Notes: generated by a model not told the origin, from the sequence alone. 5,715 nucleotides of DNA from a virus (IMGVR_UViG_2534681759_000003), one strand, 5' to 3'. Shown: positions 1-5,715, counted from the first letter of the stretch. Numbers and translations: made by a program.

Positions 1-2521
1 CAAGCTGACCGTTATCAATCTGCGTCCACAGCTCCTGAGCCAGATGGGTTTTCCCTATCTCGCCTTTGAAAAAATCCAGATAGCCTGATGCATCATCACT
101 CGGCTGACCGACAGCCTCCACGAATGCCGATTTGCCAACGGTGTTCACACTGCGAACATAAAAATAATAATCATGGCCCGGTTTGATATTGATACTGGCG
201 GCTATCCAGTACAGCGCCGTACCAAGATAACGCGCGCTGGTTTCAACCTGCCTGATATCCGCAATCCGCTTTTCCGAGAACCAGAACTCAAACTGTACCG
301 TCGGATCATAAACCGCAAGATGCGGCGTGGCGGTTATCTGAAAATAGCCCGGTGTCAGCTCAATCCGCGACGGCGCTGCCGGGGCGGCAATCCGGAACGA
401 TACCGACGCCGGATCGCCCTGCTGCCCCCACGCATTTACTGCCCGGACTGTCAGCCTGTAGTTCCCCAGAGCCAGTTGTGTGAAGCGGTAAGTGGTTTCC
501 GTCGTCCGGGCCGTGCTGACCAGCCGCTCACGGCCGTCATCCGCTGCCACGGTCAGGCGAAGCAGGAAGCTCACGCCCTTCACCACCTTCGGCGTGTCCC
601 AGCGCGCCAGCACCTGGTATTCCCCGCTGTCTGCGGTGACTTCTGCGGTCAGGTGCTGCACCGCTGGCGGCGTGACACCATTTACCGTGCCGCTCTGGTC
701 GCCGTCAAAGTGCGCCCCGTTATCCACGATGGCCTCTTTCTCCGGCACATGCTGCACGGCGGTGATGGCATACGTGCCGTCGTCGTTCTCACGGATACTC
801 ACGCAGCGGAACAGGCGCTGGCGCAACGTCGGCAGCTTCAGCCCCCATACGCTGTATTCAGCAACGCCGTCAGGAACACGGCTCACTTTCACCTTCACGC
901 CGTCGGTGACGGACTGAACCTCCACGCTGACCGGACTCCCCTGCCCGTCAACCAGGCTTATCAGCGTGGTGCCGGAAGATGGCAGCGTGATTTCACGGTC
1001 GAGCGTCAGCGTCCGGGTCTGGCTGTTCACCGCCAGCACGCGCCCGCCGATGCTGATACCGGCATAGTCATCATCGCAAATTTCAATGACATCGCCCGGT
1101 ACATGGCGAAGCCCTTCGGCACCCACGCTGAAGTCCACGGTCTGCGTTTCCAGCAGTTCCGTTTTAATCAGCCACAGCCCGGCGCGGTGTGCCTGCCCCC
1201 GACTGGTACAACCAAAGGCATCCATCTTCGTGACATTACGACCGTAACGGGCAATGGCCTGCGTATCTTCAACAAGCTCTGTCGCCGTCTCCCAGCCGTT
1301 GTTCGGGTCAATCCAGTTCACCTCAACGGCATTATGGCGGTCCTTCAGGGCGCTGAAACTGTAGCGGAACGGCGCGCCATCATCCGGCATCACCACATTA
1401 CTGCGGTTATAGATCCACACCTTATCCGACGGTCGGTCCTGCACGAACGTCAGCGTCTGCCCGTTCCATACCGGCATACAGCGCATCGCAGAGCAGAAAT
1501 CACTGAGCACATCCCACGCCTTGCGCTGTGTGGTCAGGTACGCATTACAGGTGATGCGCGGCTCCGTGCCGCCAAAGCCGTCCGGCACTGACTGGTCGCA
1601 GTACTGGCCGATGACATACAGCGCCCATTTGTCCACATCCGCCGCACCAAGACGTTTCCCCATGCCGTAGCGCGGATGGGTCAGCATATCCCACAGACAC
1701 CAGGCCATGTTGTTGCTGTATGCTGGCTTAAACGTTCCGTCCCAGATACCGCTGTATTGCCGCGTCTGCGGGTTATAGTTCGACGGCACCTGCAGAATGC
1801 GCCCGCGCAGATGATAATTACGGCTCACCTGCTGGCTGCCGAACTGCTCCGAGTCCACCTGCACGCCGACCAGTGCCGTGTTCGGGTAGCACTGTTTCAC
1901 ATCGATAATTTCGGTGTATGACGACCAGAGCGTTTTGTTCTGCAGCTGGTCTGTGGTGCTGTCCGGCGTCATCCTGCGCATCCGTATATTGAACGGGCGC
2001 GGCGGCAGGTTATCCACCACCACCGAGGCCAGATACTGTGAAGTGGTTTTACCCTTAATGGTGATGTCTTTTTCCGTCACCCAGCCACCGTTACGTTGTA
2101 TCTGAACCAGCAGGCGGACTTCCGATGGATTCCTGTCCCCCTTTGAGGTGGTTTCCACCAGTGCCTGCACGCCGAAAGTAAAACGCAGACGGTCAATGTT
2201 TGCCGACGTGATGGTCCGGGTGATCGGCGTGTCATATTTCACTTCTGTACCGAGCACCGTCTCGGAGCCGGAGGATTCAAATCCCTCCGGCGGTGTCTGC
2301 TCCTGCTCACCGGCCCGGAACACCACCGTGACGCCGGATATATTGGTATTCCCCTCAGTGTCCAGCACCGGCGTACTGTTCAGCAGCACGCTTTTTAATC
2401 CATCCACCGGACCTTCAACCGGCCCTTCGCTGATGGCATCGATCACACTCAGCAGCTGCGTGGACTTCAGGTTGTCCTTCGCTTCGCGCGGGGTATGCCC
2501 CTTACTGCTGCCTTTACCCAT
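1..2521 (-). CDS. J: Tail tip host-specificity protein J (central tail fibre), N-terminal ~840 codons; 3' end lies beyond the window start
   Basis: ATG at 2521..2519 (plus-strand cat) preceded by GGAG (2530..2533) with an 8-nt spacer. Hand translation of the minus strand gives [58 protein letters not shown]..., which I recognise as lambda gpJ. The ORF track reports no stop-terminated minus-strand ORF in 1..2521, consistent with one frame open to the window edge. Position directly downstream of I matches lambda gene order. Confidence 0.92.
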
Positions 2522-2581: not shown

Positions 2582-3253
2582 TCAGCGACCAATCACCACA
2601 ACCTGACCACCATCCCCTTCGTCTGCCGTGCTGATCTCCTGAGAAACCACGCGTGACCCCACGCGCATTTCACCGTACAGAACCGGCAGAACATTACCCT
2701 GGGCAACCATGTTATCCAGGGAGGAGAAATAGGTGTTCTGTTTGCCGTTATCCGTTGTCTGTGTACGGGGAGTTCTGGCTTTCGGTGCCAGCATCTGCGC
2801 CACACCACCGAGCACCATACTGGCACCGAGAGAAAACAGGATGCCGGTCATACCACCGGTCCCAATGGCTGCCCCCCATGCTGCAAGGGTGGCTCCGGCG
2901 GTAAAGAATGATCCGGCAATGGCGGCAGCCCCCAGGACAATCTGGAATACGCCACCTGACTTGGCCCCGGCGACTCTGGGAACAATATGAATCACAGCGC
3001 CATCAGGCAGAGTCTCATGTAACTGCGCCGTTAACCCGGACGTGCTGACGTCCCGCCCGGCAATCCGTACCTGATACCAGCCGTCGCTCAGTTTCTGACG
3101 AAACGCCGGGAGCTGTGTGGCCAGTGCCCGGATGGCTTCAGCCCCCGTTTTCACACGAAGGTCGATGCGGCGACCAAATCGTTGTAAATCCCCGTAAAGG
3201 CAGATGCGCGCCATGCCCGGTGACGCCAGAGGGAGTGTGTGCGTCGCTGCCAT
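2582..3253 (-). CDS. I: Tail assembly protein I (N-terminal ubiquitin-like beta-grasp domain, C-terminal Gly/Ala-rich hydrophobic region)
   Basis: 223-aa ORF in the track (MAATHTLPLASPGMARICLYGDLQRF...QVVVIGR), recognised as lambda gpI. Putative SD GAGAGG about 11 nt upstream (complement of 3265..3270). Start lies 103 nt inside the 3' end of K, as in lambda. Stop TGA at 2584..2582. Confidence 0.93.
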   Translation of the reverse strand: MAATHTLPLASPGMARICLYGDLQRFGRRIDLRVKTGAEAIRALATQLPAFRQKLSDGWYQVRIAGRDVSTSGLTAQLHETLPDGAVIHIVPRVAGAKSGGVFQIVLGAAAIAGSFFTAGATLAAWGAAIGTGGMTGILFSLGASMVLGGVAQMLAPKARTPRTQTTDNGKQNTYFSSLDNMVAQGNVLPVLYGEMRVGSRVVSQEISTADEGDGGQVVVIGR

Positions 3254-3894
3254 TTGTCGGTGTACCTCTCTCGTTTGCTCAGTTGTTCAGGAATATGGTG
3301 CAGCAGCTCGCCGTCGCCGCAGTAAATTGCGGCGTGATTCGGCACTGATGAACCAAAACAGCACAGCAGCACATCGCCCGGCTGTGCCGCTGACAACGGC
3401 ACCTGATACAGCCCCGTCGCCTCCAGATTATCCAGATAGAGATTCTGGCCGTTACGCCACCAGTCATCCTCACGATAAAAGTCCGGCATCTCAATCCCCG
3501 CCAGATGATAAGCATCCCGGAACAGTGTGTAACAGTCCGTCACACCGTGCTCAAAGCGCCGCCCGGTGAGATGCGGCACACAGCGGAACTTATGAATCGT
3601 CCCCCGGCAGACCAGCCACCACGGCAAATCACTCTGCACCTGCAGCCGCCGGTCGGTCTCACTCAGCCAGGGCAGACCACCGGGGTGGCTGTGGACCAGC
3701 GCCACAATCTCACCCTGCATCTCTGCCCGCAGCCAGTCCTCCGGCGACATCCGGAAATACTCCTCCGGCTCACCGGAGATATTCACGCAGGGAAAATATC
3801 TTTCCCCCTCCGGCGTGCTTACCACGAAGCCGCACGACTCCGCTGGCGCACATCGCCGGGCGTGCGCCAGAATCGCTGATTCTGTCTGTGTCAT
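3151..3894 (-). CDS. K: Tail tip assembly protein K: N-terminal JAB/MPN (JAMM) metallopeptidase-like domain plus C-terminal NlpC/P60 cysteine peptidase-like domain (long 247-aa form; alternative internal start at 3750 gives the classical 199-aa form)
   Basis: 247-aa ORF in the track. JAMM signature H68-S-H70-x7-S78-x2-D81 (HSHPGGLPWLSETD) with a candidate upstream Glu in AESCGFVV (E19). NlpC/P60-like Cys in GVTDCYTLF and His residues in NHAAIYCG / LLHHIP. ATG at 3894 lies 5 nt after the L stop. Internal Met49 (3750..3748) is preceded by GGAGGAG (complement of 3760..3766) with a 9-nt spacer. Confidence 0.88.
   Translation of the reverse strand: MTQTESAILAHARRCAPAESCGFVVSTPEGERYFPCVNISGEPEEYFRMSPEDWLRAEMQGEIVALVHSHPGGLPWLSETDRRLQVQSDLPWWLVCRGTIHKFRCVPHLTGRRFEHGVTDCYTLFRDAYHLAGIEMPDFYREDDWWRNGQNLYLDNLEATGLYQVPLSAAQPGDVLLCCFGSSVPNHAAIYCGDGELLHHIPEQLSKRERYTDKWQRRTHSLWRHRAWRASAFTGIYNDLVAASTFV
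3760..3766 (-). promoter_or_regulatory. K: Shine-Dalgarno sequence (GGAGGAG) serving the internal K start codon at 3750..3748
   Basis: Complement of plus-strand ctcctcc at 3760..3766, 9 nt upstream of the in-frame ATG that corresponds to the classical 199-aa K start. Confidence 0.5.
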
Positions 3895-3899
3895 GGGAT

Positions 3900-4598
3900 T
3901 TACTGCGAAAGTTTGTTAATGGAAAGGAAGCCGCCAAAGTTGCCGACGTTATTGCGGAACTTACAGCCACTCAGGCATTTGCTGCATTTATCCTTCGTGA
4001 TATCGGACGTCGGCTGGTCATATTCATCCGCGACCGCCGGACCGCTATAACCGCACTCATCGCCGCGATAGGTCCAGGTGCAGGTGTTGGCCAGCATGAT
4101 ACGTCCCGGAAAAACAGCGCCATCCGTTTCAGTCGGCGTGGACAGTACAAAAGAGGCACTCACCGCGCTCAGTTCGCTGCACTGCTCGATGCGCCAGCGG
4201 CTGATCACCTCCTGCTCCGGATCGGCTTCGCTGTTTCCGTTGACGAAGTTCACCGCATCCAGAAAGCGGGCGTAAACCTTACGCCGGACCACCGTTCCGC
4301 CGACCAGACTCTGCAGATCTTCCGCCATCCCGGTGATCATGCCGTGCAGGTTAGAGACCGTCAGTGTCGGACGGGCAGCACTGCCCTTGCCGTTCATCTC
4401 AAATCCACTCCCCTGAATGGGATAGGCCTGATACTGCCGACTCTGCCAGGTGACAGACTCACCTTTTTCGTTCTGCTCATTACAGAAAAAGTAGCGATCT
4501 CCACCGACCTCTGTCAGGTCGATTTCCCAGAGCACCACGCTGGCCGACTGCTCCGCACGGGTGCATTCATTCAGTGTTTCCTGCCGGATATCCTGCAT
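3900..4598 (-). CDS. L: Tail tip protein L (Cys-rich C-terminus; lambda gpL is reported to bind an iron-sulfur cluster)
   Basis: 232-aa ORF in the track (MQDIRQETLNECTRAEQSASVVLWEIDLTEVGGDRYFFCNEQ...FLSINKLSQ), recognised as lambda gpL. Its ATG overlaps the M stop by one base (minus-strand TGATG, 4600..4596). C-terminal region has five Cys (..NTCTW..DECGY..DKCSKCLSGCKF..). Confidence 0.93.
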   Translation of the reverse strand: MQDIRQETLNECTRAEQSASVVLWEIDLTEVGGDRYFFCNEQNEKGESVTWQSRQYQAYPIQGSGFEMNGKGSAARPTLTVSNLHGMITGMAEDLQSLVGGTVVRRKVYARFLDAVNFVNGNSEADPEQEVISRWRIEQCSELSAVSASFVLSTPTETDGAVFPGRIMLANTCTWTYRGDECGYSGPAVADEYDQPTSDITKDKCSKCLSGCKFRNNVGNFGGFLSINKLSQ

Positions 4599-4927
4599 CA
4601 GTTCACCACCTGTTCAAACTCTGCGCTGAACTCAACACGCAGCATACTGACCCGCGACGACCATTTTGCGCAGGTCACCTTTATCTGCCGCCACTCATAA
4701 GGCGGCGTCCACAGAAAGGCTTTCCAGCCCCCGTGCTCTTCCAGAAACGACTCCAGTACCGTGGCCTCCTCACGGGGGACAGAAAGCGTCACGCTGTACG
4801 TTTTCAGGTTGGCATTCAGCCCGGCAGGCGCTCGCTGGGAATAGCCATCACCAAAGCGCACCTTTCTTACAGAAGGGGCCGAAGCCACATCCATACCGGG
4901 TTTCACTTTCCAGCGGAAGGTTTTCAT
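4598..4927 (-). CDS. M: Tail tip protein M
   Basis: 109-aa ORF in the track (MKTFRWKVKPGMDVASAPSVRKVRFGDGYSQRAPAG...EFEQVVN), recognised as lambda gpM. Strong SD GGAGGTGG (complement of 4931..4938) 3 nt before the ATG at 4927..4925. The start sits in an ATGA context that in lambda also supplies the H stop codon. Confidence 0.92.
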   Translation of the reverse strand: MKTFRWKVKPGMDVASAPSVRKVRFGDGYSQRAPAGLNANLKTYSVTLSVPREEATVLESFLEEHGGWKAFLWTPPYEWRQIKVTCAKWSSRVSMLRVEFSAEFEQVVN

Positions 4928-5055
4928 CGTCCACCTCCGGAGAACAGGCCACCATCACGCATCTGTGTCTGAATTTCATCACGGGCACCCTTGCGGGCCA
5001 TGTCATACACTGCCTTCAGAGCTGTGGACCTATCTGACCGTTCGTGCCGTCGTTG
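4924..5055 (-). other. H: Out-of-frame 3' remnant of H: 43 open codons ending at the TGA that overlaps the M start (ATGA); not joined to the main H frame in this sequence
   Basis: Hand translation of the minus strand in the frame ending with stop 4926..4924 gives QRRHERSRDSTALKAVYDMARKGARDEIQTQMRDGGLFSGGGR*, bounded upstream by TAA at 5058..5056. The ALKAVYDM...GGLFSGGGR part looks like genuine coding sequence, and I believe it matches the lambda gpH C-terminus (from memory). It is offset by one nucleotide from the main H frame. Confidence 0.5.
4931..4938 (-). promoter_or_regulatory. M: Shine-Dalgarno sequence (GGAGGTGG) for M
   Basis: Complement of plus-strand ccacctcc at 4931..4938, 3 nt upstream of the M ATG at 4927..4925. 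Confidence 0.55.
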
Positions 5056-5715
5056 TTAATCACCACATGGTTATTCTGCTTAAAAGTCATGCCTGCGGCC
5101 CGCCGCATCTGCGCCGGGCTGCCCGGTGTACCGACATAACCGCCGGTGGCATAGCCGCGCATCAGCCGGTAAAGATTCCCCACGCCAATCCGGCTGGTTG
5201 CCTCCTTCGTGAAGACAAATTCACCACGGTGAACAATCCCCGCTGGCTCATATTTGCCGCCGGTTCCCGTAAATCCTCCGGTTGCAAAATGGAATTTCGC
5301 CGCAGCGGCCTGAATGGCTGTACCGCCTGACGCGGATGCGCCGCCACCAACAGCCCCGCCAATGGCGCTGCCGATACTCCCGACAATCCCCACCATTGCC
5401 TGCTTAAGCAGAATTTCTGTCATCATGGACAGCACGGAACGGGTGAAGCTGCGCCAGTTCTGCTCACTGCCGGTCAGCATCGCCGCCATATTCTGTGCAA
5501 TACCATCAAAGGTCTGCGTGGCTGCACTTTTTACCTGCGACATACTGTCCGTGGCGCTCTCTTCCCACTCACTCCAGCCGGACTTCAGGCCTGCCATCCA
5601 GCTCCCGCGAAGCTGGTCTTCAGCCGCCCAGGTCTTTTTCTGCTCTGACATGACGTTATTCAGCGCCAGCGGATTATCGCCATACTGTTCCTTCAGGCGC
5701 TGTTCCGTGGCTTCC
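5016..5715 (-). CDS. H: Tail length tape-measure protein H, C-terminal portion (5' end beyond the window); frame ends at TGA 5018..5016, earlier than expected from lambda
   Basis: The minus-strand frame reported as 5016..5651 (211 aa from an internal Met) presumably continues upstream to the window edge (not verified codon by codon). Contains a Gly/Ala/Ser-rich hydrophobic segment (VGIVGSIGSAIGGAVGGGASASGGTAIQAAAAKF) and ends ...NNHVVINNDGTNGQIGPQL. Position immediately upstream of M matches lambda gene H. Confidence 0.85.
   Translation of the reverse strand, partial: EATEQRLKEQYGDNPLALNNVMSEQKKTWAAEDQLRGSWMAGLKSGWSEWEESATDSMSQVKSAATQTFDGIAQNMAAMLTGSEQNWRSFTRSVLSMMTEILLKQAMVGIVGSIGSAIGGAVGGGASASGGTAIQAAAAKFHFATGGFTGTGGKYEPAGIVHRGEFVFTKEATSRIGVGNLYRLMRGYATGGYVGTPGSPAQMRRAAGMTFKQNNHVVINNDGTNGQIGPQL

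Follow-up and report, generated by a model that had tools for sequence, protein, structure and literature searches.

A single missing base in the tape-measure gene H of a lambdoid prophage contig, at the end of a patchwork of two natural alleles

The window analysed here, the complete 5,715-nt stretch IMGVR_UViG_2534681759_000003, carries on its minus strand the 3' end of a lambdoid tail tape-measure gene H in which one base is absent at 5022..5026 with respect to all relatives, and the H frame stops 92 nt before the normal H stop. The most likely reading, to which we give about an even chance, is an error of consensus or assembly in which two prophage copies were blended. The gap, the patchwork of alleles in front of it, the uniqueness of this patch, the origin of the sequence in a draft contig and the multi-copy nature of the region were all observed directly, and the blending would be the work of the assembler, not an event in the cell.

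The window and the interrupted H frame

The reverse complement of the window matches exactly the entire contig AQFA01000012.1 (5,715 bp) of the draft assembly GCA_000355255.2 of Escherichia coli Jurua 20/10, and the window therefore covers one whole short contig; the strain is a CS7 enterotoxigenic (ETEC) E. coli and has sister CS7 ETEC strains (PMC6301781). Gene calls compared with the lambda annotation revealed lambdoid prophage tail genes only, all on the minus strand and in the lambda order H-M-L-K-I-J. The 3' 700 nt of H (5016..5715), cut at the contig end at 5715, encode 232 aa and are followed by M (4598..4927, 109 aa), L (3900..4598, 232 aa), K (3151..3894, 247 aa, with Prok-JAB and NlpC/P60 domains) and I (2582..3253, an ORF of 223 aa, for which the source contig has a 190-aa call), all of them intact, and by the 5' part of J (1..2521), an open frame of 840 aa that is cut at the other contig end. 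Across the collection index, 24,489 blocks contain the exact M protein. Opposite gene J, on the plus strand (173..1591), runs a 472-aa antisense ORF, and nothing points to a gene there.

The H fragment corresponds to the GenBank protein EMX59772.1, named 'phage tail tape measure protein, lambda family, partial', and the Pfam family PF09718 (Tape_meas_lam_C) is recorded on this 232-aa product. Since the contig stops within H, the N-terminal 620 residues with the TMP_2 domain lie outside the window. On homology and synteny it is a member of the lambda-family tail tape-measure proteins (gpH; PF06791 and PF09718): it is placed upstream of M-L-K-I-J as expected for gpH of this family, and the window and lambda agree in ~95% of the DNA across the 3' end of H and gene M. 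The expected feature that fails is the in-frame C-terminal helix (lambda residues 818-849), as the frame ends at P820 followed by QL.

Direct reading and translation showed that the H frame is open from 5714 to a TGA at 5018..5016 and ends in ...NNDGTNGQIGPQL (...NGQIGPQL). The frame one base upstream is closed by a TAA at 5058..5056 and then reads QRRHERSDRST-ALKAVYDMARKGARDEIQTQMRDGGLFSGGGR*, with its TGA (4926..4924) overlapping the ATG of M (4927..4925) in an ATGA at 4927..4924; in lambda, too, the coding regions of H and M have these four bases in common. The out-of-frame C-terminal remnant of H thus occupies 4924..5022 and consists of the 32 codons of ALKAVYDMARKGARDEIQTQMRDGGLFSGGGR and the TGA, and its peptide is identical (100%) to lambda gpH residues 822-853. 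In lambda numbering the H product is kept through P820, and the 33 residues 821-853 are replaced by QL. The original prediction, which had described the two frames, their three bounding signals, an interruption 92 nt early and the exchange of the last ~33 residues for QL, proved accurate on each of these points. The premature stop with respect to intact orthologues is what is found in a frameshift pseudogene; further decay is not seen, the remnant being equal to an intact allele and M, L, K, I and the 5' part of J being intact.

The prediction had also attributed the interruption to the loss of one base, by deletion or sequencing error, and had proposed to align the H/M junction to lambda. Such an alignment, with lambda and an O145 prophage, gave one gap, which lies in the window between positions 5026 and 5022 (GGTCC-ACAGCTCTG in the window vs GGTCCGGCTGCTCTG), and the comparisons agree on a single missing base with respect to all the relatives listed. 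By megablast, 501 bases of the window match 502 in each of the 30 phage records and 40 E. coli genomes listed, and among the matches listed the same base is missing in maps of 84 to 85 and of 5715 to 5716 bases. The extra base, and with it a single frame, is found in lambda, in the 29/29 panel loci covering the site and in the matches listed among 127 phage records and 3,077 E. coli genomes. In a three-way alignment, the whole window set against lambda and prophage WP2 showed no further net indels of its own; of all columns, only that of the frameshift has the window gapped relative to 29 of the 31 panel loci, and the gap is shared by none of the 31. The loss is not, however, a simple deletion from the lambda sequence, as three substitutions fall within 12 nt of the gap. 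The bases at the site read CC-ACA-GCT in the window, CCG GCT GCT in lambda, CCA CAG ATG in a second natural allele and CCA CAG GCG in a third. The short CAG-CAG-like repeat that had been suspected here does not exist: the actual sequence, CCACAGCTCTGA, has no run longer than two bases, no repeat and no homopolymer.

This sequence bears on the idea that the interruption is bypassed somewhere from 5055 to 5019, either by a -1 shift of the ribosome or by slippage during transcription, which would restore a full-length gpH. A -1 shift anywhere from the TAA at 5058..5056 to the TGA at 5018..5016 would give back the lambda C-terminus, and the neighbouring G/T genes of the lambda family use programmed -1 frameshifting (review PMC5009743). 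A regular-expression scan of 5062..5012 in any register found no X XXY YYZ slippery heptamer and no homopolymer run, and the two-frame arrangement is not conserved among relatives (lambda, the 29 panel loci and the matches listed). Programmed frameshifting and transcriptional slippage were rejected on these grounds, and we consider a bypass of this kind extremely improbable.

The allele patchwork in front of the gap

The 40 codons preceding the gap diverge strongly from lambda (PGSPAQMRRAAGMTFKQ vs PGSMADSRSQASGTFEQ). A protein search and the prophage loci retrieved through exact matches to the M, L and I proteins uncovered two further common natural H alleles besides the lambda type. Allele 2, revealed by the protein search with the H C-terminal fragment, reads ...GSPAQMRRAEGINFNQNNHVVIQNDGTNG(LP/QA)GPQ(M/L)MKAVYDM... 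and is the 'SPAQMRRAEGINFNQ...PQMMK' allele; allele 3 reads ...GQIGPQALKAVYDV... (CCA CAG GCG CTG AAG). The codons of allele 3 qualify the repair offered by the original prediction, since its CCA-GCA-GCT (PAALK) is possible but CCA-CAG-GCT (PQALK) has this natural match at the protein level.

According to a haplotype table and a copying model over 31 loci, the window alternates from 5117 to 5019 between the lambda type and allele 2 with at least eight switches, in segments of 20, 3, 7, 2, 5, 49, 9 and 5 nt. Upstream of this patch, 598 nt are identical to one finished prophage (L007), and downstream of it 519 nt (5018 to 4500) are identical to another, intact prophage (L015). Within the patch the window has just two private features, one substitution and the missing base, and nearly all other bases occur in one or other of the two alleles; because of this, the patch is a mixture of two alleles and not a third diverged lineage. 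At the frameshift itself the window reads allele 2 (TCCACA), skips the column in which lambda has T and allele 2 has G, and then continues with the lambda GCTCTGAAGG, and the gap is thus the last junction of the allele patchwork. The two common H alleles diverge strongly only within the last ~110 nt of H.

As a control, copies of this 5.7-kb block from finished genomes were described by the copying model with the same panel as source, with leave-out. The five finished-genome copies examined had 0-1 switches in the H patch compared with eight in the window, whereas over the whole block the control copies comprised 9-58 segments with up to 6 switches per 100 nt elsewhere, and the window as a whole comprised 41 segments with up to 8 switches per 100 nt. 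The contig is overall an ordinary mosaic and only the H patch is anomalous. A collapse of the whole contig as a random blend of paralogues was considered and dropped, the contig being no more mosaic than the finished-genome copies and only the H patch standing out.

Natural variation is concentrated in the same zone. In the last ~45 codons of H (5135..5005; loci L003-L035) at least three natural alleles of the PAALK, PQMMK/PQLMK and PQALK types were seen, together with natural recombinants among them, and the flanking H body and M are almost invariant. Judged from these loci, the 3' end of H is a local hotspot of diversity just before the gpI-binding helix.

The searches for the patch covered several collections. 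In complete E. coli genomes the best match to the patch reached at most 83.6% over 61 nt (7,480 matching places in 3,501 genomes) and the best match to its 41-nt core reached 85.4%, and none of the matches listed at the frameshift site in E. coli genomes is without the extra base. The GTDB species representatives, IMG/VR and the JGI metagenomes contain neither the exact pattern of the patch nor that of the site, whether one base is added or not; thirteen JGI metagenome matches to a 20-mer were discarded as chance, with no further homology. The 232-aa H product is recorded on contig AQFA01000012.1 only. With the H C-terminal fragment as query, the protein search gave cluster representatives of up to 180 aa only, inside whose clusters the exact patch could sit, so absence from that search is weak evidence. 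A search for a finished genome close enough to show both parental prophages gave none, the best identity being 98.0-98.5% over 2.3-2.7 kb.

Other base-level peculiarities of the window lie outside H. The exact K protein is also recorded on contig AQFA01000012.1 only; it was considered as a sign of chimerism and set aside as uninformative, K being naturally very polymorphic. Codon 45 of K (3762..3760) is GAG (Glu) compared with GCG (Ala) and GAT (Asp) in the common haplotypes, its second base matching one haplotype and its third base the other, and Glu is found at residue 45 in none of 13 cluster members; it would be either a point mutation or another base-level blend. With respect to the 31-locus panel, substitutions private to the window were found at 2696, 1358, 1211, 1202, 1079, 740 and 383, and at five of these seven the coding (minus) strand of I and J has T in place of C; the panel is small and they may be unsampled polymorphisms.

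Origin of the missing base

The genomic setting of the contig favours an error of assembly or consensus. A 5.7-kb contig of repeated prophage DNA alone is a typical product of short-read assemblers, and the present contig is short and built wholly of sequence that is multi-copy in E. coli generally: counted per E. coli genome having any, the whole window occupies a median of 3 places (14 at most) and the block from the end of H to I a median of 2 (13 at most), with 13-15 as the highest numbers across counts, these numbers referring to other E. coli genomes and not to Jurua 20/10 itself. The origin of the sequence in a repeat contig of a draft assembly raises the weight of this reading. Lambdoid tail genes are usually present in at least two near-identical prophage copies per E. 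coli genome; reads or paths from two such copies could have been merged, the consensus would then blend both H alleles, and at the most divergent spot the column with T in one allele and G in the other would have been dropped, giving CCACA-GCTCTG and the frameshift. The features of the patch agree with an artefact, as it is a local blend of two haplotypes with few private bases that is not reproduced in other assemblies. A base-by-base blend where the alleles align worst, with a dropped column and in a single draft contig, is what a mixed-read consensus gives. Two points weigh on the other side: pure de Bruijn assemblers choose one path through a bubble and never blend alleles base by base, and the control weakens the argument from mosaicism, the finished copies also showing up to 6 switches per 100 nt.

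The lesion may on the other hand be real. A recent loss of one base in a resident lambdoid prophage would truncate gpH after P820 and make H a young pseudogene, possibly through ectopic recombination or gene conversion between H alleles of co-resident prophages; we regard this as a serious competitor, with a chance somewhat short of even. The lesion is present in the deposited sequence, H and J genes are disrupted in other assemblies as well, so that a frameshifted H would be unremarkable, and natural H alleles recombine in the same zone, as in P0008, where an allele-2 patch is joined to a lambda-type GQIGPAA end. The remnant is undecayed (its protein equals lambda 822-853 and its DNA equals that of the intact prophage L015) and M, L, K, I and the 5' part of J are intact, which fits a very recent event; the lesion, if real, is very young for this reason. 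Against a real loss, the allele is a singleton across every collection searched, the sequence stems from a short contig of repeated DNA in a draft assembly, and a patchwork of 2-20-nt segments, sitting where the two alleles align worst, is hard to obtain via homologous recombination. The minimal processing segment for RecA recombination in E. coli is ~25-30 nt, and the 2-5-nt segments of the patch are shorter than normal crossovers.

It is unlikely, though conceivable, that both the patch and the missing base arose by ectopic gene conversion between two co-resident lambdoid prophages. A heteroduplex across ~35% divergent DNA, followed by very short-patch repair, would then have yielded the blend of alleles and the frameshift at its junction. 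If this were true, it would be a natural case of inter-prophage recombination destroying, and not diversifying, a tail gene.

Consensus or assembly error remains the reading that we prefer. Whether the cause is an assembly error in repeated prophage DNA or a young frameshift pseudogene, either of these likely readings is commonplace and carries little biological weight.

Consequence for the tail and comparison with known tail genes

The original prediction had left open whether the lost residues fall in the part of gpH that is removed during assembly. In lambda, gpH is cleaved near residue 690-710, releasing a C-terminal piece of ~14 kDa and leaving H* (~1-710); this C-terminal fragment, gpHC, remains in the virion (PMC12617516, PMC10721106), where a coiled coil of three helices, made by residues 818-842/849, rests on the gpI tripod within the tail tip (PMC12617516, PMC10721106, PMC11101478). 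The peptide encoded by the remnant matches exactly the gpH chains modelled in PDB 8IYK, 8IYL, 8K35 and 9E7M. What is lost thus belongs to the structure of the tail tip and is not discarded by H* processing, nor are these residues dispensable, since the C-terminal fragment is kept in the virion, and truncation after P820 would remove almost all of the gpI-docking helix. In phage TP901-1, infectivity requires the last 60 residues of the tape measure (PMC5099701). If the lesion is real, the tail is probably defective: gpH without the helix would not be anchored in the tail-tip initiator complex, assembly or function would fail, and the Jurua 20/10 prophage should be unable to make infectious tails. 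These structures (PMC10721106, PMC12617516, PMC11101478; PDB 8IYK, 9E7M) and the TP901-1 analogy (PMC5099701) support the consequence ascribed to a real frameshift.

The same structural data bear on the suggestion that the window holds an intact, unsampled natural allele whose shorter gpH, ending in GPQL, is functional. PQ is native at this position in other alleles (PQLMK, PQMMK, PQALK), but the panel H genes with a called 3' end all reach the M start (853-1077 aa), the lost codons persist unchanged in the next frame, and the helix that is lost is built into the tail tip (PMC10721106). We consider such an allele very improbable, and EMX59772.1 is no evidence for a naturally shorter gpH.

The loss of the overlap between the H stop and the M start need not silence M, judging from the sequence upstream of it: M has its own Shine-Dalgarno motif, GGAGG (4934..4938), 6 nt before its ATG, and its translation would for this reason not have to depend on coupling to H termination.

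The system found in the window is of an ordinary type, with no new mechanism. Its closest counterpart is lambda gpH (NP_040595, 853 aa), with which it shares ~95% DNA identity at the 3' end of H and in M, the H-M-L-K-I-J order, PF09718 and the protein sequence of the last 32 codons. It differs from lambda in being one base short at 5026..5022, with a stop 92 nt early and QL in place of 821-853, and in that its 40 codons before the stop blend the lambda allele with a second natural allele. With this allele 2 (for example WP_023149684.1 of CREC-629 and loci L015-L024: ...GSPAQMRRAEGINFNQNNHVVIQNDGTNGLPGPQMMKAVYDM...) the window shares the CCGGCGCAGATGCGGCGGGC block, TTTTAA, TCCACA and GCAGTG; allele 2 is itself in frame to the M start, whereas the window reverts to the lambda type several times within 100 nt.

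Interrupted tail genes were also seen elsewhere. H is split into 106 and 770 aa in UGBD01000002.1 (L010), no H gene is called in CP165057.1 (L012), and at a further locus (L028) J is split into four ORFs and K is shortened. The H loci of UGBD01000002.1 and CP165057.1 resemble the window in having an interrupted H among intact neighbouring tail genes; they differ in that none of the 31 panel loci has the gap of the window.

A single missing base is also known from lambda itself. At ~14,240 of the 1982 reference NC_001416 (~3760 in the window) the reference is without one base (GGAGGC-TATTTCC) that is found in the window and in 30 prophage copies, as well as in the resequenced lambda stocks and derivatives listed (for example LC730321, KT232076 and DE3, in which 121 bases of the window match 121). 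With this base, K is a 247-aa protein (Prok-JAB and NlpC/P60) that starts 6 nt after L, and NC_001416 annotates only a 199-aa K. The lambda K case is therefore alike in that one missing base alters the annotated protein, from 247 to 199 aa, and opposite in direction, since there the reference is the outlier while the window, the prophage copies and the resequenced lambda stocks carry the base.
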